Assembly: GCF_055900595.2 (NCBI RefSeq)
Contig: NZ_CM148325.1
Direction: 5' to 3' (one strand)
Length of the DNA: 64,000 nt
Below are positions 1,018-59,912 of this stretch, piece after piece. The translations under genes were made by a program, and so were the position numbers. How positions within the stretch are numbered: the first letter of the stretch is position 1; the number at the start of each line of letters is the position of its first letter. Below the pieces are notes generated by a model. That model ran no database searches and had not been told where the DNA came from. It worked only from the letters and a program-made list of their open reading frames with translations.

Positions 1018-2617
<1,600 letters not shown>

Positions 2618-2621
2618 GTTC

Positions 2622-3173
2622 ATGCAAACGAAAAAAAATGAAATTTGGGTGGGTATCTTTTTATTAGCAGCACTGCTGGCGGCGCTGTTTGTTTGCCTGA
2701 AGGCGGCGAACGTGACGTCCATACGTACTGAACCGACCTATACGCTTTATGCGACGTTCGATAACATTGGCGGCCTGAAAGCGCGCTCTCCGGTCAGCAT
2801 TGGTGGCGTTGTTGTGGGCCGGGTGGCGGATATTACGCTGGACCCGAAAACCTATCTGCCACGCGTAACGCTGGAAATTGAACAACGTTATAACCACATT
2901 CCTGATACCAGTTCGCTGAGCATCCGTACTTCCGGCCTGCTGGGGGAACAATATCTGGCATTAAACGTCGGTTTTGAAGACCCGGAACTGGGGACTGCTA
3001 TCCTGAAGGATGGCGATACAATCCAGGACACTAAGTCTGCGATGGTGCTGGAAGATCTCATTGGTCAGTTCCTTTACGGTAGTAAAGGCGATGACAATAA
3101 GAATAGTGGCGATGCGCCAGCTGCTGCGCCAGGTAATAATGAAACCACTGAACCTGTGGGTACAACGAAATAA
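2622..3173 (+). CDS. mlaD: MCE-domain periplasmic substrate-binding protein MlaD
   Basis: ATG at 2622 gives MQTKKNEIWVG..., 183 aa; ORF-track start 2607 is an upstream extension. Confidence 0.9.
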   Translation: MQTKKNEIWVGIFLLAALLAALFVCLKAANVTSIRTEPTYTLYATFDNIGGLKARSPVSIGGVVVGRVADITLDPKTYLPRVTLEIEQRYNHIPDTSSLSIRTSGLLGEQYLALNVGFEDPELGTAILKDGDTIQDTKSAMVLEDLIGQFLYGSKGDDNKNSGDAPAAAPGNNETTEPVGTTK

Positions 3174-3826
<653 letters not shown>

Positions 3827-27435: not shown

Positions 27436-27510
27436 GCGGGATAAGGCGTTTACGCCGCATCCGGCATGGATTGCCTGATGCGACGCTGGCGCATCTTATC
27501 AGGCTACGTG
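27436..27510. repeat. REP (repetitive extragenic palindrome) elements between infB and rbfA
   Basis: gcgggataaggcgtttacgccgcatccggc... and ...gcctgatgcgacgctggcgcatcttatcaggc, typical REP sequence. Confidence 0.55.
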
Positions 27511-27580
27511 AACAGCCCTTCCACCTGAAATTAATTTTAAAAAGGGGCTAACAGCCCCTTTTTTGTCAGGAGAATTTATT

Positions 27581-47511: not shown

Positions 47512-48375
47512 ATGAAACAACACCAATCGGCGGATAATTCTCAGGGCCAGCTTTACATTGTACCGACGCCAATCGGCAATCTGGCAGATATCACCCAGCG
47601 TGCGTTGGAGGTTTTACAGGCCGTTGATCTGATTGCCGCCGAGGATACGCGTCATACCGGTTTACTGCTGCAACATTTTGGAATTAACGCCAGGTTGTTC
47701 GCCTTGCACGACCATAACGAACAACAGAAAGCCGAAACGTTACTGGCGAAGCTGCAGGAAGGGCAAAACATTGCGCTGGTGTCCGATGCCGGAACGCCAC
47801 TGATTAACGATCCCGGCTATCATCTGGTGCGTACCTGCCGAGAAGCGGGGATTCGCGTGGTGCCACTACCGGGGCCGTGTGCTGCTATCACTGCATTAAG
47901 TGCTGCGGGTTTACCATCCGATCGTTTTTGTTATGAAGGTTTCCTGCCTGCCAAATCAAAAGGCCGTCGTGATGCGCTAAAAGCCATTGAAGCGGAGCCG
48001 CGTACGCTGATTTTTTATGAATCCACCCACCGTCTGTTAGATAGCCTGGAAGATATCGTTGCTGTGCTGGGTGAGTCCCGTTACGTGGTGCTGGCGCGTG
48101 AGCTCACCAAAACCTGGGAAACCATTCACGGCGCGCCCGTTGGCGAGCTGCTGGCGTGGGTCAAAGAAGATGAAAACCGTCGCAAAGGTGAAATGGTGCT
48201 GATTGTTGAAGGCCATAAAGCACAGGAAGAAGACTTACCTGCCGATGCCCTGCGCACGCTGGCGTTGTTACAGGCTGAGCTTCCGCTGAAGAAAGCGGCG
48301 GCGCTGGCAGCAGAGATTCACGGCGTGAAAAAAAACGCGCTGTATAAGTATGCGCTGGAACAGCAGGGGGAGTGA
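47512..48375 (+). CDS. rsmI: 16S rRNA C1402 2'-O-methyltransferase RsmI
   Basis: 287 aa ORF divergent from lpoA. Confidence 0.9.
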
Positions 48376-48424: not shown

Positions 48425-49192
48425 TTAACGACGACACATCTCATCAATCATGCATGTGAAATAGTTATGCAGCCATAAAAACGAAGCCGGGATAGCGGTA
48501 GAGACTTTAGCCGTGAGAAAACGTTCTGTCGCATCCTGCTTTCCTTCGCCAGTTATCAGTAACAAAACTTCGCGGGCATTGAGAATATCCTTCAGGCCTA
48601 AAGTGATCCCACGAGTCACGGGGCGACCCGCGGTTTTTAACATCTCATGTTGTTGCGTTCTGGTATCAAGCTGGCTGATATGGCTTGCTGGTTGCAGACT
48701 TTCTCCCGGTTCGTTCAGCCCAAGATGGCCGTTTTTTCCCAATCCGAGAACGCATAAATCCAGACCGCCTTTGCGCGCAATCAGGTTCGTTACCCGTTCG
48801 CACTCTGTCTCATTTATCTCTTCAGAGCGAAAGCTGATGAGCTGGTCTTCACGTAGCCCCAGCGGCTGCACGATATGCTGTTGAAGGAAAGTTTCGCAGG
48901 TGCCAGGCATCGTTAATGGCAGATCCACCCATTCGTCGAGCTTCACGAAGGTCAGTTGGCTGACATCAACCTGCTGCTGGTGGATTTTTTCTACCAGATA
49001 ATGATACGTCAGTAATGGCGTGGCTCCGGTCGCCAGGCAAATCACGGCATCCGGTTTGCTACGGATCACGGCCAATAAATATTCGCTGGCACGTTCACTT
49101 AACGCCGTATAGTTTTCAACTTGTTGAAGGGTTTGCACAGGATGAAATTCCTTTAGTAAAGAGGCACCACCAGACGCAGTGCCTCGTTCCAT
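48425..49192 (-). CDS. agaI: Galactosamine-6-phosphate deaminase/isomerase AgaI (NagB family)
   Basis: 255 aa ORF; last gene of the agaS-kbaY-agaBCDI block; ATG directly follows agaD stop. Confidence 0.85.
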   Translation of the reverse strand: MERGTASGGASLLKEFHPVQTLQQVENYTALSERASEYLLAVIRSKPDAVICLATGATPLLTYHYLVEKIHQQQVDVSQLTFVKLDEWVDLPLTMPGTCETFLQQHIVQPLGLREDQLISFRSEEINETECERVTNLIARKGGLDLCVLGLGKNGHLGLNEPGESLQPASHISQLDTRTQQHEMLKTAGRPVTRGITLGLKDILNAREVLLLITGEGKQDATERFLTAKVSTAIPASFLWLHNYFTCMIDEMCRR

Positions 49193-51293: not shown

Positions 51294-51459
51294 TGTGTAA
51301 TCCTCACCATAAAGTTGAATAATATAATTTTTTTAAATATATTATTGTTGCGATATTTTACTGATGTATTTATTAAGGTTTAGTTATCTCCTTTACCATT
51401 AAGGCACTCCCCGATATTAATCGGGAAGTACATTGGGATAAATCATAAAAAACTAATGA

Positions 51460-52332
<873 letters not shown>

Positions 52333-53487
52333 TTATGCCTGCCACGGATGAATGATTACGCCTTGCACCACACGGTTAACGGTGCCGCTGGCTGATGGGG
52401 TATCCGGCGTATTGCCCATGTGCAGCGACTGCATCAGTGCAAACGTCTGGGCGTACATCAGGAAGCAAAATGCCTGCTCAACGTCGATAAAGTGACGTGA
52501 CGGCGGCAGGATGATATGTGGACCGGCGGTAATAACGTCGTTGCCTTCCGCGGCGATGGCGATTACGCGCATTGCCTGGTTGTCACGGCGGAGTTCTGCC
52601 AGCAGATCAAGATCATACTGACGCGTATAGGGGTGGCTGGAGACAAACACCACCACCAGCGTTTCGTCATCGACCAGTGATTTAGGCCCATGACGGAATC
52701 CGGTCGGGGAATCATAAAAGGCCGCCAGTTTACCCGCCGTCAGTTCCAGTACTTTCAGCGCCGACTCGCGTGCTGCGCCCTGTAAGCCACCGCTGCCGAG
52801 ATAAACGATCCGTTTCCACGGTGCGTAACCAAACACACCTTCGCTGAAATCGCCCAGTGAGGTCAGGATCGCCTGGCAACGATCCGCTACGTCGCGGAAG
52901 GTCTGGCTATTGATTGTCTCAGGTGCGAAAACCGCGAGGCAGCTGGCCATCATAGTGGTAATGCTGCTTGTCATCGCAAAGCCGCGATCGTGCGTTTCTG
53001 CGGGCATCAGCAGGGCAAACGCGTTGTCGCTGTTGATCGCGTTTTGGTAAAGAGCGCCCGCTTCGTTGCAGGTGATCGGCAGGTGATAGCATTCCGGTAC
53101 AAACTGATTCGCCAGTTCCACGGCGGCGACGCTTTCCGGGCTGTTGCCAGATCGACCGAAGGAGATCAACAGCAGTGGATGCGCTGGGTTCAGGTATTCC
53201 ATTGGATTGGTGACCAGATCGGTGGTCGGTACGGCGCTGACGTTTTTGCCGGTATGGCTGGCAAGCCACGGCGCGATGATGTCACCGATAAATGCCGAGG
53301 TTCCGGCTCCGGTCAGAATGATCCGCAGATTCTCTTTGCGCAGTAACGGTTCAAGGAAGTTATTGAGAGCTGTACGTAACGCGTCGATGTTGGTGAGTGA
53401 ACGGATCCATGCGCGAGGCTGATGGCGGATCTCTTCTTCAGTCCATGTGCCGGTGGTGGCGGCCGCTGGGGTGTAATTTTCTGGCAT
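52333..53487 (-). CDS. agaS: SIS-domain sugar-phosphate isomerase/deaminase AgaS
   Basis: 384 aa ORF. Confidence 0.9.
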   Translation of the reverse strand: MPENYTPAAATTGTWTEEEIRHQPRAWIRSLTNIDALRTALNNFLEPLLRKENLRIILTGAGTSAFIGDIIAPWLASHTGKNVSAVPTTDLVTNPMEYLNPAHPLLLISFGRSGNSPESVAAVELANQFVPECYHLPITCNEAGALYQNAINSDNAFALLMPAETHDRGFAMTSSITTMMASCLAVFAPETINSQTFRDVADRCQAILTSLGDFSEGVFGYAPWKRIVYLGSGGLQGAARESALKVLELTAGKLAAFYDSPTGFRHGPKSLVDDETLVVVFVSSHPYTRQYDLDLLAELRRDNQAMRVIAIAAEGNDVITAGPHIILPPSRHFIDVEQAFCFLMYAQTFALMQSLHMGNTPDTPSASGTVNRVVQGVIIHPWQA

Positions 53488-53539
53488 AACTCAATCCTTA
53501 GTCTGATGAACTTGACTTCCGGCATTGCAGGTTTCGCTT

Positions 53540-53660
53540 GCCTTTCGTTTCATTTCACTTGGTGATTCGTTTCGTTGATTAAAATCTATAGAAAAGAAAT
53601 CGAAAGTTCAATGGAGAAAAAAGAAATAAAACGAAATTTGTGATCGTTGAAAGAAAAGAC
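53540..53660 (-). promoter_or_regulatory. agaS promoter region with iterated AgaR operator-like motifs
   Basis: Repeated CTTTCGTTTCATTTC / TTCGTTTCGTT / AAAGAAATCGAAAG / AAAACGAAAT motifs just upstream of agaS. Confidence 0.4.
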
Positions 53661-53837
53661 AAGGGAAGATTAAAGGATTGCGTGATGACGTCGCTATGTG
53701 TACCGATTGCTGGAAGCGGCGTACCGTAGAGCGGATAAGACGCGCCAGCGTCGCATTCGACACCACTGCACAGATTAAAACGAAAGAAAAAGAAAGGCCT
53801 TACGGGGGAAGTGAAGGCCCAATAAAGGAGCAAACCA

Positions 53838-54971
53838 TCAAAACGAAGCTAATTGACCCTGAATCCAGATTTGTTGCACATACAGTCCGCTATTCAGCGC
53901 AACGACGCTGGCGCGTTTGCCCGGTTTAAGTGATCCCAGAACACCATCAACACCCAGCATTCGCGCCGGATGCAGCGATGCCATATGGATGGCTTCCGCA
54001 GGCGTTACGCCCGTCAACTCGACCATGTTGCGCACTGCCGCATCGACAGACAGCGTACTGCCCGCCAGCCCACCGGACGCGGTACGGACAACGCCACCGC
54101 GCATCTGCACTTCTTCACCACATAACGTATATTGACCATCCGGCATCCCGGCTGCCTGCATCGCATCAGTTATCAGCACTATTCTCTCTTTCGCACAGCA
54201 ACAACACAGCGACATCGCCGCCGGATGTACATGATGCCCATCGGCTATCAATTCCAGCCAGGCGCGCTTGTCCGTTAAACCCGCGCCAACCATTCCCGGT
54301 TCGCGGTGATGTAATCCTGTCATCCCGTTATAGCAATGCACCAGGCCGTCTGCGCCAGCATCAAATACGGCGCGGGTTTGTTGCCAGGTTGCTGCGCTAT
54401 GTCCCAGCATTACCCGCACGTTCTGCTGTTTAAGATGACGAATGGCTTGTAACGCGCCCGTTTTTTCCGGTGCCAGCGCCACCACGCGCAAGGTATGCCG
54501 TGAAACAGCAATCAATTGATCCAGCTCGGCAATTTCCAGCTCGCGAAACAGCTCCGGCGGATGTGCGCCTTTATTCTGCGGCGTGAAGTACGGTCCTTCG
54601 AGATAACTCCCCAGCACTTGCGCACCAGGTCCACCGCGCTGGCAGCGTAGAGCAATACGTTCCAGCGCCGCATGAATGGTATTAAGCGGCGCGGTTACGG
54701 TAGTCGGCAACCAACTGCCGACACCTTCCCGTGCCTTGTGCATTGCCAGCTTGTCGAGCACATCCGGCGCGTCATCCATAACATCAACGCCCGCACCACC
54801 GTGTACATGGGTATCGATATAAGCGGGGCAGAGCAGTTCCGCATCGCGTTCAGTCACGCCCACTGGAATCGGTTCGATTGCTGCAATTACACCGTCAGCA
54901 ATATGCAACTGATGATCATCAAGCCAGCCCTCCTCAGTCAGCAGTCTTCTGGCGCGCAGAACGTGTGTCAT
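53838..54971 (-). CDS. agaA: N-acetylgalactosamine-6-phosphate deacetylase AgaA (full length)
   Basis: ATG at 54971 gives MTHVLRARRLLTEEGWLDD..., about 377 aa NagA-like amidohydrolase; uninterrupted. Confidence 0.85.
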   Translation of the reverse strand: MTHVLRARRLLTEEGWLDDHQLHIADGVIAAIEPIPVGVTERDAELLCPAYIDTHVHGGAGVDVMDDAPDVLDKLAMHKAREGVGSWLPTTVTAPLNTIHAALERIALRCQRGGPGAQVLGSYLEGPYFTPQNKGAHPPELFRELEIAELDQLIAVSRHTLRVVALAPEKTGALQAIRHLKQQNVRVMLGHSAATWQQTRAVFDAGADGLVHCYNGMTGLHHREPGMVGAGLTDKRAWLELIADGHHVHPAAMSLCCCCAKERIVLITDAMQAAGMPDGQYTLCGEEVQMRGGVVRTASGGLAGSTLSVDAAVRNMVELTGVTPAEAIHMASLHPARMLGVDGVLGSLKPGKRASVVALNSGLYVQQIWIQGQLASF

Positions 54972-55402
54972 ATTCCTTCCTCGACCGGACATTCTTCATG
55001 GCAGCGGCCTAACTCGTCTACCAGACTGGTCAGCCCACGGTGTCCACACTCCAGCGCCTGCACACGGAATTCTTCACCGCTTAACCCTTCGCGCTCCAGC
55101 ACCATTTCCAGTAACAGTTGCAAATTGGTGCCGGTGATCACTTCATAGCCCGGTTTTTGCATCGCCAGCGTTGAAGCCACGCGAAACGGTGTGCCGCCCA
55201 GCAAATCTGTCAGAAAAACAATGCCGTCTTCACAATCCAGTTGGGCGATGGCTTCTTCAAGCTGCGATGTAAGCAGCGCAGTGCTTGAGGTTTCCGGAAA
55301 ATCAATGGCGATAAACTGCGACTGCTCGCCGAGGATTTGCTTCATTGCTTTTTCCATGCCGCTGGCAAATCCGCCATGCCCTGTCAAAATAATACTTAAC
55401 AT
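54968..55402 (-). CDS. agaF: PTS N-acetylgalactosamine/galactosamine EIIA component AgaF
   Basis: 144 aa mannose-family EIIA. Confidence 0.85.
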   Translation of the reverse strand: MLSIILTGHGGFASGMEKAMKQILGEQSQFIAIDFPETSSTALLTSQLEEAIAQLDCEDGIVFLTDLLGGTPFRVASTLAMQKPGYEVITGTNLQLLLEMVLEREGLSGEEFRVQALECGHRGLTSLVDELGRCHEECPVEEGI

Positions 55403-55419
55403 CTAATACCTCATTGTAT

Positions 55420-56298
55420 TTAAAGGAAATGACAGAATTTACCGACGATGCCAAGAACCACGGTAACCGCAATCAGGCGCAGCGGACTCCAGCCGCGGCG
55501 TACCAGCCAGAACATGGTCAGGGTGTAGACCAGCGGTAAGAAGGCAGGCATCAGTTTGTCGATAACGTCAGCCTGCAGCTTAACCACTGCGTCGCCCGCC
55601 GTGATTTCCAGCGTGGTGCTTAAACGAACATAGGTTGCCACCAGCGCGCCGATTACCGTCATCCCAACGATTGACGCAGCATGGCCGACTTTTTTGGTAT
55701 TCGCTTTAATGAGTGGAATCGCCGCCACGCCCATGCGGTAAGCATAATGCGCCAGACCAAAACGCAGCCCCAGGTGTACCACGTTGAACAGCACAATAAA
55801 GACGACTGCGCCAAGAATAGAGCCTTGCAATGCCAGACTGGCTCCAATCCCGCCACAAATCGGCAGTAACGTTAGCCAGAACATGGCATCGCCAATCCCG
55901 CCGAGCGGCGCACCGACGGCAATTTTGGTGCTCTGAATACTGTTAACGTCCTGCTTAGAACGCTCCATCGCAAGGATAATGCCGATAACAAACGTCACCA
56001 GAAACGGATGGGTATTGAAGAAACCCATATGTCCCTTCATGGCGCGCGCCAGGTCGCGTTTATTAGTGTGGATCTTTTTCAGAGCAGGCAGCAGACCGTA
56101 CAACCAGCCGGAAGCCTGCATACGTTCGTAGTTAAAAGACGCTTGTAACAGCATGGAACGCCAGGCGACGCGGTTGATATCTTTTTTCGTCAGCTCTGCG
56201 CCAATGCTCTGATCTTCATACACGTTTTCATTGACGCCTGTCAGCAGTGTCTCTTCATTTTCGCTGACGTTCGGCAGGGTGGTTTGATTAGATGCCAT
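55420..56298 (-). CDS. agaE: PTS N-acetylgalactosamine-specific EIID component AgaE
   Basis: ATG at 56298 gives MASNQTTLPNV..., about 292 aa; 11-bp overlap with agaW like the agaC/agaD junction. Confidence 0.85.
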   Translation of the reverse strand: MASNQTTLPNVSENEETLLTGVNENVYEDQSIGAELTKKDINRVAWRSMLLQASFNYERMQASGWLYGLLPALKKIHTNKRDLARAMKGHMGFFNTHPFLVTFVIGIILAMERSKQDVNSIQSTKIAVGAPLGGIGDAMFWLTLLPICGGIGASLALQGSILGAVVFIVLFNVVHLGLRFGLAHYAYRMGVAAIPLIKANTKKVGHAASIVGMTVIGALVATYVRLSTTLEITAGDAVVKLQADVIDKLMPAFLPLVYTLTMFWLVRRGWSPLRLIAVTVVLGIVGKFCHFL

Positions 56299-57067
56299 CT
56301 TCAAATTCCTCTTTCTGTGCCGCAGGTTGAGTCGGTTCAGGAGATTTACGCAGCAAGTCGATCAGCGCCATCGCCAGCGCGGCGGCAGCAATAGCCAGCA
56401 CCGGTAACTTGAGCCAGGCTGCGGCAACAAAGCCCAGGATGAAGTAGGGGATGTAGACGTTTTTCATCATGATTTTCAGCAGCACGGCAAAACCGATTGC
56501 TGGCATGATGCCACCCGCGACGCCGAGGCCGTCGATTAATCGTTGCGGCAGGACATCAATGATGGTTTTGGCATGTTCTGCGCCGAAGTAGATAGGCAGG
56601 AAAGCGCAGAGAAAATAGAACGTGCCGAGTGCCAACAGTGCCAGATAGTTCACGCGTTCAATGCCGCGTGTATCGGCGTTCTCCGCCATCCGGTCGCAGC
56701 GGGACATTACGCCAGACATCACCGAGAACAGGAAGGTAATCCCCATCTGTACTGCGACAGCGAAAGGTACGGCGACACCGACCGCGACATCCGGTTTCAC
56801 GCCAGTAGTAATGGCAAACGCCGTGCCGACGATAGTTCCGATAATCACGTTAGGCGGCTGTGCGCCCGCCAGTGGTGCCAGCCCCATCCACACCAGTTCC
56901 AGCGTACCGCCGGTTAAAATACCGGTATGCAGATCGCCAAGCACCAACCCAACTAACGGGCCGAGGACCACCGGGCGGTGCATATGGGTCAAGCCGTTAA
57001 ACATATCCAGGCCAGCGATAAAGGCGATAATGCCCAACGCAAATGCCTGCAACAGACTGATTTCCAT
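56288..57067 (-). CDS. agaW: PTS N-acetylgalactosamine-specific EIIC component AgaW (full length)
   Basis: 259 aa mannose-family EIIC, paralogous to AgaC; uninterrupted. Confidence 0.85.
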   Translation of the reverse strand: MEISLLQAFALGIIAFIAGLDMFNGLTHMHRPVVLGPLVGLVLGDLHTGILTGGTLELVWMGLAPLAGAQPPNVIIGTIVGTAFAITTGVKPDVAVGVAVPFAVAVQMGITFLFSVMSGVMSRCDRMAENADTRGIERVNYLALLALGTFYFLCAFLPIYFGAEHAKTIIDVLPQRLIDGLGVAGGIMPAIGFAVLLKIMMKNVYIPYFILGFVAAAWLKLPVLAIAAAALAMALIDLLRKSPEPTQPAAQKEEFEDGI

Positions 57068-57077
57068 AATGAATCCC

Positions 57078-57551
57078 TCAAAGTAATTTAAAGAGGTCCA
57101 CAGCAGGTTCTGTCGGAACGCCCTGAACGAAGCATTCCACCCCAGCGGCTTTCAGGTCGTTAAATGCCGCGATATCGCTCGCATCCACAGAAACCGTTTT
57201 GGCAATTTGCTGCTTGCCATTGGCATAGTGCATGTTGCCAACGTTAATGCGACTCACCGGGACCCCACCTTTAACCAGCATCAGGAAATCGGCAGGTGTT
57301 TTACAAACCAGCAGAATTTTCTGCCGATCGGCGGCGCGGTGGATGTTGTCGATCACTTTTTGCAGCGTCCAGAAACGTACGGCGATCCCTTCAGCCAGTA
57401 CCATTTCCATCAGGTTTTGTTGTACCGGATCTTCGGCAACCTCATCATTGGCTACCAGCACCAGATTTGCCCCCGCAAATCCGACCCACTGAACGCCGAC
57501 CTGACCGTGAATCAAGCGTTCATCAATCCGGCTTAAAACAATATTTGGCAT
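57078..57551 (-). CDS. agaV: PTS N-acetylgalactosamine-specific EIIB component AgaV
   Basis: ATG at 57551 gives MPNIVLSRIDERLIHGQVG..., 157 aa. Confidence 0.85.
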   Translation of the reverse strand: MPNIVLSRIDERLIHGQVGVQWVGFAGANLVLVANDEVAEDPVQQNLMEMVLAEGIAVRFWTLQKVIDNIHRAADRQKILLVCKTPADFLMLVKGGVPVSRINVGNMHYANGKQQIAKTVSVDASDIAAFNDLKAAGVECFVQGVPTEPAVDLFKLL

Positions 57552-57573
57552 AGCGTGTTCCTCTTTGTTTTGC

Positions 57574-58854
57574 TTATTGGCCTTCACAGGCTGTGTGGTA
57601 CTGCGCCAGGATGTCCTGAATATGGTTGATAATGAGTTCCCGTGGCGTTGGCTGCAGCTCGCCGGAGCGAACTTTCACGTATTGCAGCGGCAGGTACTGA
57701 CTGATGAGCGGCAGCGGAATTGGTGCATCCGCCAGGTTACGAACCAGATGGGCGAAAGCGTCATCAATCTGGCTGTCCGGCCAGTAATAGCGCACGCGAT
57801 CCGAGTAGCTATAACCACGCGCCAGACGACGCGCGTTGCCATCACCGTGGTAGTGGCTTTGCCAGTATTCCGGGCGGTCGAGCATCACGTTTTCCAGCAC
57901 CTGACGCAGACCGGAACAGGCTTTTGCTGGCACCAGTTCTTCTTCAATCGCCGCCAGAGAGAACAGAGCTTCACGCAGGGCGAAGGTGAGCGCCGGACCA
58001 ACTTTCAGAATGGCAAAGTGGTCAATCACCAGCTGGCGCAGCGATTGCGGCGTTTGGTAATCGGTAGAGTGCGCTTCGAAAATCAGCGTTTCGTAGTTTT
58101 CGACCATCTGGCTTAAGGCGGTCGCTTTAGCTGGCTGATAATCAATAACGTTGGTGTGATCGAATTCGACGCCGGGTTGTACCACCAGAGCAATGATGCG
58201 TGGCCAGATGGCATTCAGACCTTGCTTTTCAAAGGCGTGACGATGGGCTTCCAGCGTGGCGCGGGCGGCATCCGGCGTAGTGACCGCCAGCTCGCTTAAG
58301 GTTTCATGCGCGCCGCCAGGTACCGGCACTTCGGTACCAATGACATACACCAGATCGGCTTCGCCAAAGTGTTCACGGCAGGTTTCTTCCGCGACTTTAG
58401 CCAGTCGGGCGGCGCGTTCAGCCACGATGTCATCGGTTAAGGGAACCGGATCGTCCTGACAGGACATGCTGCAATCAAGGTGAATTTTTTTGAATCCTGC
58501 CGCCACGTAGCTTTTAATCAAATCATCGGCATTTGCCATCGCCTGAGCTGCAGGCAGGTTTTGCCAGCGGTTTGGCCCCAGATGATCGCCACCCAGAATC
58601 AACGCGTCTTGTGGGAAATTCAATGAGTCGGCGAGCTGACAAACAAAGCCGCGAAAATCGGCGGGTGTCATTCCGGTATAACCACCGAACTGGTCCACCT
58701 GATTGGATGTCGCTTCAATCAGTAACGGTGTTTGGTTTACACTGGCGTAGCGGATTGCAGCTTCCAGCACCAGCGGGTGTGCGGAACAAACGGCATAAAT
58801 CCCATTTGTTTTGCCCTCTTTGTGCTGCCTCACCATTTCTGTCAGATGTTTCAC
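57574..58854 (-). CDS. kbaZ: Tagatose-bisphosphate aldolase non-catalytic subunit KbaZ (AgaZ)
   Basis: 426 aa from GTG at 58854 ([22 protein letters not shown]...); start uncertain, ORF-track start is 58920. Confidence 0.8.
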
Positions 58855-58929
58855 TTTCCTCTCCAGTTCAGATTGCTGCGATATTAATCTTTCGTTTTGT
58901 TTCAGTTGATACTGCGTCATGGTGAGATA

Positions 58930-59095
58930 AAAATAAAACGAAAGATAATAGTTTTCTGATCTGATTCACAAAAGAAACATAATGAAAGTCACTGAAACGA
59001 GAGTAGCTTGCGTCAATGGGCAAGGTGGGCTTGCATTTGCTCAATAGAAAGGCGTTAATAGGCAAAACGAAATGAAACGAAAGTTTTACGAAAGG
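58930..59095. promoter_or_regulatory. Divergent kbaZ / agaR promoter region with AgaR operator-like repeats
   Basis: Iterated AAACGAAAG, AAAGAAACATAATGAAAG and AAAACGAAATGAAACGAAAGTTTTACGAAAGG motifs. Confidence 0.4.
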
Positions 59096-59102
59096 ACTTA
59101 CT

Positions 59103-59912
59103 ATGAGTAATACCGACGCTTCAGGCGAGAAGCGAGTGACAGGCACCAGCGAGCGACGAGAACAAATCATTCAGCGCCTGCGACAGCAAGGGAGTGTGCA
59201 GGTTAACGATCTGTCGGCATTGTATGGCGTATCTACTGTGACGATCCGCAACGATCTGGCGTTTCTGGAAAAGCAGGGGATCGCTGTGCGGGCCTATGGC
59301 GGCGCGTTGATCTGCGATAGCACGACGCCGTCAGTCGAGCCATCAGTGGAAGATAAAAGCGCGCTGAACACTGCGATGAAACGCAGCGTTGCGAAAGCTG
59401 CCGTTGAGTTGATTCAGCCAGGTCATCGGGTGATCCTCGATTCCGGGACCACCACGTTTGAGATTGCTCGTCTGATGCGCAAGCACACTGACGTAATTGC
59501 GATGACCAATGGTATGAACGTAGCCAATGCACTGCTGGAAGCAGAAGGCGTTGAACTTCTTATGACCGGCGGGCATCTGCGGCGTCAGTCGCAATCTTTT
59601 TACGGCGATCAGGCTGAACAATCGCTACAAAATTACCACTTCGATATGCTGTTTCTTGGCGTAGATGCTATTGATCTGGAGCGCGGCGTCAGCACGCATA
59701 ATGAAGATGAAGCCCGTTTAAACCGTCGGATGTGCGAAGTTGCGGAACGGATCATCGTGGTCACCGATTCCAGTAAGTTCAACCGTTCCAGTTTACATAA
59801 GATCATTGATACTCAACGTATCGACATGATCATTGTTGATGAAGGCATTCCTGCGGATAGTCTGGAAGGACTGCGAAAGGCTGGGGTTGAAGTGATTCTG
59901 GTCGGGGAGTGA
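59103..59912 (+). CDS. agaR: DeoR-family transcriptional repressor AgaR
   Basis: 269 aa ORF with N-terminal HTH and DeoR C-terminal domain. Confidence 0.9.

Follow-up and report, generated by a model that had tools for sequence, protein, structure and literature searches.

The agaA-agaS spacer of an Escherichia coli aga/gam cluster annotated as a probable operon junction with putative AgaR operators

The 350-bp spacer between agaA and agaS is, with high probability, an ordinary and already characterised junction of the E. coli aga/gam regulon, at which one operon ends and the next one starts. We are similarly confident that the TTTC-repeat arrays in this spacer, and in the spacer between kbaZ and agaR, represent AgaR operators that are already known, judging from their sequence and conservation. 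The aga regulon with its three AgaR-controlled promoters is textbook knowledge on E. coli, as are REP elements, and the finding is of small import. Its worth lies in the annotation: each stretch of the spacer is given to a predicted terminator, REP element, REP remnant, promoter, operator or ribosome site, conserved operators are told from look-alike strings, and the repeat period is reset to half a helical turn.

The window (the whole stretch of 64,000 nucleotides that was analysed) contains the complete E. coli aga/gam cluster on its minus strand, and the coordinates of the relevant genes and spacer features are collected in Table 1. Positions 53488-53837 correspond exactly to the agaA-agaS spacer and positions 58855-59102 exactly to the kbaZ-agaR spacer, the two together amounting to 598 bp. 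E. coli Z0117EC0005 matches the window at 100% over the finding and is annotated with agaS, agaA (nagA) and agaR at these positions. K-12 has the same layout, but with the known agaW'-agaA' deletion. The agaA-agaS spacer allele of the window is rare: 16 of 5313 genomes have it at ≥99% identity. The protein encoded at 59103-59912, annotated as AgaR, contains an HTH_DeoR domain (1.9e-21) and a DeoRC domain (3.3e-55). For comparison across alleles and genera we used 7 E. coli alleles and the loci of K. aerogenes and of a K. pneumoniae plasmid; in the Klebsiella loci AgaS is 80% identical and the gene order is as in E. coli. These loci, like those of Proteus and Vibrio mentioned below, were taken from a plasmid collection.

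Table 1. Genes and spacer features in the direction of agaS transcription (positions of the window; spacer elements are predictions)
Feature	Sequence	Position	Strand	Remarks
agaR		59103-59912	+	
Putative AgaR operator adjoining agaR	AAACTTTCGTTTCATTTCGTTTTG	59063-59086	-	0 mismatches to reported consensus
Putative AgaR operator	TGACTTTCATTATGTTTCTTTTGT	58968-58991	-	1 mismatch to reported consensus; 24-nt block invariant with Klebsiella
CRP-like site	TCTGA-N6-TCACA	58952-58973		Between two kbaZ promoter operators; read from sequence
AgaR operator-like block	ATTATCTTTCGTTTTATTTTTA	58928-58949	-	Contains CTTTCGTTT; 22-nt block invariant with Klebsiella
Putative proximal kbaZ promoter operator	AATCTTTCGTTTTGTTTCAGTTGA	58886-58909	+ (antisense to kbaZ)	3 mismatches to reported consensus
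kbaZ		57574-58854	-	Followed by agaV, agaW, agaE, agaF
agaA		53838-54971	-	PGAP name nagA; stop codon 53838-53840
Predicted intrinsic terminator hairpin	GGGCCUUCAC-UUCCCCC-GUAAGGCCU	53795-53820	-	Begins 18 nt after agaA stop
Predicted terminator T-tract	UUCUUUUUCUUUCGUUUU	53777-53794	-	Directly follows hairpin; 14 of 18 nt are T
REP element, decayed outer stem	GTGTCGAATGCGACGCTGGCGCGTCTTATCCGCTCTAC	53727-53764	-	Includes CTAC tail
Polymorphic segment, ~57 bp		53670-53726		From alignment of 7 E. coli alleles and gapped pairwise alignment
Putative distal AgaR operator	CAAATTTCGTTTTATTTCTTTTTT	53617-53640	- (sense with agaS)	1 mismatch to reported consensus
Predicted -35 of agaS promoter	TTGAAC	53606-53611	-	CATTGA invariant; Klebsiella TTGAGC
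Operator-like repeat in promoter spacer	CTTTCGATTTCTTTTC	53591-53606	-	CTTTC and TTTCTTT invariant with Klebsiella
Predicted -10 of agaS promoter	TAGATT	53583-53588	-	Klebsiella TAAATT aligned, then invariant ATTTTAA
Motif-like string	TTCGTTTCGTT	53566-53576	+	Specific to window allele
Putative proximal AgaR operator	TGCCTTTCGTTTCATTTCACTTGG	53539-53562	+ (antisense to agaS)	0 mismatches to reported consensus
agaS ribosome-binding region	TAAGGATTG	53492-53500	-	4 nt before ATG; invariant with Klebsiella
agaS		52333-53487	-	ATG at 53487; followed by kbaY, agaBCD, agaI

A preliminary description of this DNA had reported runs of short motifs in both spacers, and the strings that it quoted are indeed present, at 53543 (TTTCGTTTCATTTC) and at 59065 (AAACGAAATGAAACGAAAG). 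On both strands of the 64 kb, CTTTCGTTT occurs in 6 copies, 5 of which lie inside the two spacers (2 in agaA-agaS and 3 in kbaZ-agaR), and all 4 copies of TTTCRTTTC fall inside them. TTTCNTTTY was counted 7 times in the agaA-agaS spacer and 5 times in the kbaZ-agaR spacer; the corresponding counts for TTTCGTTT were 3 and 4. Both spacers are A+T-rich (G+C content of 43% and 37%, respectively, vs 52% for the window), a composition that favors reading the TTTC/GAAA runs as a by-product of A+T-rich, low-complexity promoter DNA or as sites for general nucleoid proteins. Each spacer was therefore shuffled with its dinucleotides preserved, and the observed counts of TTTCNTTTY, CTTTCGTTT and TTTCGTTT were matched by 0 of 2000 shuffles, which argues against such a by-product. 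The kbaY-agaB spacer (51294-51459), the other long spacer of this cluster, points the same way: it is A+T-rich, yet the AgaR-type motif was not found in it.

A k-mer screen of both spacers, made without any assumed motif, returned AAACGAA, AAACGAAA and AAACGAAAG as the top shared k-mers (binomial p 4e-10 to 7e-13). The top shared 8-mer, AAACGAAA/TTTCGTTT, has 3 + 4 copies in the spacers and 3 in the remaining 63 kb (binomial p ~7e-13). The preliminary description had proposed that an over-represented motif common to the two regions be sought, and with this 8-mer and the shuffling results such a motif was found.

The same-strand distances between TTTC cores cluster at 5, 10-11, 16-17, 20-22 and 26-27 bp. 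The best period was 5.4 bp (resultant 0.57, a value reached by 0.05% of random placements), and the 10.5-bp component of the same-strand core spacing was nil (0.03). The repeat unit is a 5-bp NTTTC direct repeat, present in three or four copies per operator with a period of half a helical turn. A spacing of roughly one helical turn, as had been proposed for these motifs, is therefore only half right, the period being about half of the one suggested.

In the alignment of E. coli and Klebsiella, invariant blocks of ≥6 nt in the agaA-agaS spacer are confined to the start of the T-tract, three TTTC-repeat blocks, the predicted promoter elements, TCATCA and the ribosome site. In the upstream part of the spacer these blocks are CCTTTCTTTT (the T-tract start), TTTCGTTTTATT, CATTGA and TTTCTTT; in the downstream part they are ATTTTAA, AAGTGAAA, AAACGAAAG, TCATCA and TAAGGATTG. 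The TCATCA block, invariant in Klebsiella, lies 17-22 nt before the agaS ATG. Invariant blocks in the kbaZ-agaR spacer include four TTTC-repeat operators, a shorter block containing CCTTTCT, and the CRP-like TCTGA-N6-TCACA. Beyond these genera, the region upstream of kbaY in Proteus mirabilis (AgaR 49% identical) has CTTTCGTTT and AAACGAAAG on its flanks, and both are also found upstream of kbaZ on a Vibrio diabolicus plasmid. This phylogenetic footprint is the pattern that operators and promoter elements would be expected to leave, and its presence across E. coli and Klebsiella excludes a purely compositional origin of the repeats. A few motif-like strings, e.g. that at 53566-53576, are unconserved and would suit an origin by composition; the motif blocks are exactly those conserved across genera, and a published AgaR site is matched among them, so that we regard by-products of base composition or nucleoid protein sites as highly improbable.

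The published site in question is the AgaR binding site from PkbaZ that was used in a later study, CTTTCGTTTCATTTTCGTTT (PMC8667592 Table S3). Positions 59064-59083 read CTTTCGTTTCATTTCGTTTT, which equals this site but for one T, and K-12 reads like the window; positions 53542-53556 read CTTTCGTTTCATTTC, which equals its first 15 nt. According to PMC3668189 (after Ray & Larson 2004), AgaR attaches to the DNA upstream of agaS and represses this gene, which is induced by GalNAc. Binding and repression by AgaR upstream of agaS are also described in PMC4694137, and deleting agaR from E. coli C raised agaS expression 175-fold (PMC3668189). Given the match to the published site and the invariance with Klebsiella, the reading of the repeats as AgaR operators therefore holds. 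The earlier proposal of multiple operators for a DeoR-family AgaR is in this way sustained by the DeoR-type domains in AgaR, the published-site match, and the blocks conserved between E. coli and Klebsiella. The predicted AgaR sites lie upstream of agaS, kbaZ and agaR, the latter a DeoR-type gene.

Ray and Larson reportedly gave, in 2004, a 24-nt AgaR operator consensus, WRMMTTTCRTTTYRTTTYNYTTKK, and are said to have described the AgaR operators of the K-12 aga regulon together with the promoters PR, PZ and PS. Within the window, this consensus had 6 matches at ≤3 mismatches, against 0.16 expected, and 5 of the 6 were in the two spacers. The other match, at 2624-2647 on the minus strand with 3 mismatches, was rejected as chance, as it covers the start codon and the Lys-rich N-terminus of mlaD. 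Two perfect matches (53539-53562 and 59063-59086) would support the reported consensus indirectly; a full-text literature search for the consensus or the operator strings gave no match.

In the agaS promoter region, the putative distal operator has a core, TTTCGTTTTATT, that is invariant between E. coli and Klebsiella, and the operator forms with 53543-53556 an inverted repeat of 14 nt (93% complementary, 66 nt between the arms). The repeat at 53591-53606 is 79% complementary to 53542-53555. Between the operators lies the pair TTGAAC-17-TAGATT, whose 17-bp gap is kept in Klebsiella. We predict that TTGAAC and TAGATT are the -35 and -10 of the agaS promoter and that transcription starts near 53576. 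A sigma-70 consensus scan of 53300-54000 called no promoter, and the pair scores 8/12. The proximal operator is located 52-75 bp upstream of the agaS ATG, inside the predicted leader, and E. coli and Klebsiella do not differ in its blocks AAGTGAAA and AAACGAAAG. The string TTCGTTTCGTT at 53566-53576 resembles the operator motif; AACGAAAGACATC/AACGAAAGAAATC stands at this place in K-12, BL21 and four further E. coli alleles, Klebsiella is unrelated here, and the string is probably not a conserved operator.

The kbaZ promoter is arranged like the agaS promoter, with the proximal operator copy antisense and the distal copies sense. The putative operator at 58886-58909 is 32-55 bp upstream of the kbaZ start and includes a 17-nt block, GAAACAAAACGAAAGAT, that is invariant with Klebsiella. 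At the other end of the spacer, the putative operator adjoining agaR contains a 20-nt block that is invariant between E. coli and Klebsiella. The CRP-like site at 58952-58973 is nearly invariant between E. coli and Klebsiella. In the abstract of the 2004 work by Ray and Larson, the agaZ promoter is said to depend on cAMP-CRP, with which this predicted site is consistent.

Taken in the direction of agaS, the spacer would thus consist of a terminator (53820-53777), a decayed REP (53764-53727), a remnant of a second REP (53726-53670) and the AgaR-repressed promoter PS. We propose that AgaR, as a DeoR/GlpR-type repressor, recognises 5-bp NTTTC direct repeats strung together in arrays, an operator of 20-24 bp holding about four of them. 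Of the operators at PS, one would precede the predicted -35 (53617-53640), a weaker one would occupy the spacer between -35 and -10 (53591-53606), and an inverted one would fall in the leader (53539-53562). Counted from a start near 53576, AgaR oligomers on these three operators would extend from about -64 to +37. With the operators so placed around the predicted core promoter, bound AgaR would therefore cover or bracket it and may stop transcription at initiation or early in elongation; AgaR oligomers on the inverted distal and proximal sites may also make cooperative contacts. An inducer derived from GalNAc or GalN would release AgaR. The divergent kbaZ and agaR promoters would be controlled by the same type of repeat together with a CRP site. 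We infer this geometry of PS repression, like the exact -35, -10 and start, from the sequence. In the 2004 abstract the AgaR sites are reportedly placed before the transcription starts, and in that case an operator at about +25 would fit poorly with it.

At the upstream end of the spacer, the hairpin at 53795-53820 has a modest predicted fold (-10.2 kcal/mol, z -2.1), with a 7-nt loop and one bulge. It is invariant in the 7 E. coli alleles but for one position, a G to A change of the first stem base that turns a G-U pair into A-U. Klebsiella has at the same place an unrelated, stronger stem of 9 bp (-15.9 kcal/mol, z -4.1 and -5.4), followed by nearly the same T-tract. From this arrangement we predict that hairpin and T-tract form the intrinsic terminator of the kbaZ-agaVWEFA transcript. 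A consensus terminator scan did not call the hairpin at 53795-53820, possibly because of the bulge, the 7-nt loop being within the 3-8 limit of the scan; its two plus-strand terminator-like matches are on the wrong strand for these genes.

The T-tract is broken by C and G and holds GAAAG cores at 53782 and 53792, which had been counted among the operator motifs; they sit in the predicted terminator tail, although they may also belong to a distal operator. This second possibility arises because the T-tract is phased like an AgaR operator. Besides or instead of being a terminator tail, the T-rich run at 53777-53797 would then serve AgaR as a distal operator, ~210 bp before the agaS promoter, from which a loop to the proximal operators could form or at which read-through from agaA could be halted as by a roadblock. 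The run is among the 4 perfect (TTTYN)x4 matches in the 64 kb, two others of which are the best operators; it contains CTTTCGTTT and has a 17-nt stretch with 82% complementarity to the proximal operator. Only 2 positions of the T-tract differ between E. coli and Klebsiella, while the sequence of the adjacent hairpin is wholly different. Against this, the hairpin directly before the run is explanation enough for it in both genera, and the purine positions between the pentamers are pyrimidines here. By a count made by eye, the run has 4 mismatches to the reported 24-nt consensus, and it is not among the matches at ≤3 mismatches. In addition, Klebsiella and 2 of the 7 E. coli alleles have T for the G of CTTTCG in the T-tract, a position that does not vary in the proximal operators. 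On balance we consider it possible but rather unlikely that the T-tract doubles as a distal operator. If it did, one 20-nt element would end the kbaZ-agaVWEFA transcript and also anchor a ~210-bp loop or a roadblock, tightening repression of the agaS promoter; such a double role would account for the fact that the sequence of the T-tract, beyond its T-richness, is kept with Klebsiella while the hairpin is replaced.

Downstream of the predicted terminator, and beginning 73 nt after the agaA stop codon, lies the REP element. Like a canonical REP at 27477-27500, the sequence at 53727-53764 departs from the REP core pattern at a single position. A 45-nt query from this stretch matched ≥40 places per genome in 4890 of the 5468 records with matches, the median also being ≥40. 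The K-12 counterpart folds into a proper REP hairpin (-11.5 kcal/mol, z -3.1). The copy in the window retains the inner stem and the CTAC tail and has lost the outer stem (-7.0 kcal/mol, z -0.8); with the K-12 copy intact, it is therefore a decayed member of the family. A degenerate REP-like sequence had been noted here at 53731-53765: its identity as a member of a dispersed REP family stands, and its position is corrected, the quoted string being at 53729-53759 and the element at 53727-53764. Adjacent to it, a second, inverted REP (GGCCGGATAAAGCGTTTGCGCCGCATCCAGC) stands in place of 53670-53726 in K-12-type alleles. All that the window and BL21-type alleles have of this second REP is its last ~13 nt (ACGCCGCTTCCAGC), followed by unrelated sequence, and the segment is absent from Klebsiella. 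Going by identity bands, E. coli genomes appear to split roughly evenly between the two structures of the segment. Operators and a REP remnant had been offered as a full account of the intergenic space. Both have a place in it, but the account was incomplete, as it lacked the predicted terminator and the ~57-bp polymorphic segment; some of its motif assignments were also wrong, namely the GAAAG cores in the T-tract and the allele-specific TTCGTTTCGTT.

Finally, we considered whether the spacer encodes a small protein or a structured RNA. The list of open reading frames holds one of 84 aa (53579-53833, minus strand) and one of 83 aa (53678-53929, plus strand). The 84-aa frame is F/L-rich and of low complexity, runs through the predicted terminator and the REP element, and carries a stop codon in K-12; the spacer segment has other sequence in its place in K-12-type alleles and is missing from Klebsiella. 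The small ORFs were rejected on the grounds that the 84-aa frame is stopped in K-12 and crosses terminator and REP. An Rfam scan of 53000-59400 at E up to 1 matched no family. The whole upstream part of the spacer folded no better than its shuffles (z -0.24), and a structured RNA across the upstream half was rejected on this value. A coding or structured-RNA role of the spacer is accordingly extremely improbable.

Compared with known systems, the window resembles the K-12 aga regulon in genes, spacers and motif, and the operator blocks are common to both. It differs from K-12 in having full-length agaW-E-F-A and an extra, allele-specific TTCGTTTCGTT, and in being without the second REP; these differences are allelic detail only. 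Repressors of the GlpR, DeoR, FruR and SugR type use several operators per promoter, some over the core promoter and some distant. In the DeoR/GlpR family an oligomeric repressor occupies the operators until a sugar phosphate releases it, and the operators of GlpR and DeoR are largely palindromic. The putative AgaR operators of the window, unlike these largely palindromic sites, are runs of direct repeats, 5 bp each, that recur every 5.4 bp.

As in intrinsic terminators, a G+C-rich hairpin, which begins 18 nt past the final stop codon of the operon, runs directly into a T-rich tract, and Klebsiella has this structure too, built from another stem sequence; unlike them, the T-tract of the window is unusually long (18 nt), has a C every 5 nt, and is conserved in sequence across genera. 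Of the imperfect palindrome of ~36 nt that marks the REP/BIME elements of enterobacteria, the REP copy retains the inner stem, and it shares with them a CTAC tail, an extragenic place just past the end of an operon, and a multi-copy distribution. It differs from them in having no outer stem, and its partner REP, which in K-12 completes a BIME-like pair, is down to ~13 nt.

The stretch spanning the agaA-agaS spacer (window 53400-53920) was compared with 5313 E. coli genomes, among which an identity of at least 99% was reached in only 16, with 90-95% identity in 2855 and 80-90% in 2439. A control stretch, mlaFEDC (window 1800-3400), was 95-99% identical to nearly every genome. Few genomes share this spacer allele, and its divergence is unusually high. 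The two large identity classes correspond to presence of a second REP (K-12 type) versus its replacement (the BL21 and window type). Changes private to the window lie at 53400-53535, in the leader and the first codons of agaS. The segment TCTTTTCTTTCAACGATCACAAA, upstream of the distal AgaR operator of the agaS promoter, was kept among E. coli alleles and was not conserved in Klebsiella. Features of the window and of a Klebsiella plasmid are collected in the table below.

Coordinates of features in the window and in a Klebsiella plasmid
Feature	Position	Remark
REP pair, GATAAGGCGTTTACGCCGCATCCGGC then GCCTGATGCGACGCTGGCGCATCTTATCAGGCTAC	27440-27506	canonical, BIME-like
Strong hairpin	about 27545-27560	after the REP pair
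rsmI	47512-48375	directly adjoins agaI
agaI	48425-49192	directly adjoins rsmI
Short hairpin CTTCCCGATTAATATCGGGGAG	within 51294-51459	kbaY-agaB spacer
TCTTTTCTTTCAACGATCACAAA	53639-53658	holds CRP-like half site TCACA
aga cluster, K. pneumoniae plasmid (L009)	NZ_CP041094.1, 2633-11040	

AgaR-type motifs were absent from the 166-bp kbaY-agaB spacer, which carries a very A+T-rich stretch ahead of agaB; an internal promoter, a processing site and an attenuator are candidate roles for this spacer. A match to the AgaR consensus with 3 mismatches was found at the mlaE-mlaD junction (window 2624-2647, ATGCAAACGAAAAAAAATGAAATTTGG; Lys-rich mlaD start), and was judged to be due to chance; the match lies inside coding sequence.

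In K. pneumoniae, at least 7 records of conjugative IncFIB/IncFII plasmids contain a complete agaR-kbaZ-agaVWEFA-agaS-kbaY cluster, and the K. aerogenes copy is collinear with it, operators and terminator included. Carriage of the complete cluster on conjugative plasmids makes the GalNAc pathway plasmid-mobile in Klebsiella.

The AgaR site listed in PMC8667592 (Table S3), CTTTCGTTTCATTTTCGTTT, carries an extra T relative to the genome, whose sequence is CTTTCGTTTCATTTCGTTTT in K-12 and the window alike (window 59064-59083; 1667-1914 of the compared locus L001). That T may reflect how the site was typed or designed in that study. The strain differs from K-12 in gene content: agaW, agaE, agaF and agaA are full length (window 53838-57587), so the 2.3-kb K-12 deletion is not present and the GalNAc PTS should be complete; agaC and agaI are apparently intact too. 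Because agaI is followed in K-12 by the fimbrial gene yraH, whereas rsmI takes this place here, this strain apparently lacks the yra fimbrial genes at this locus.
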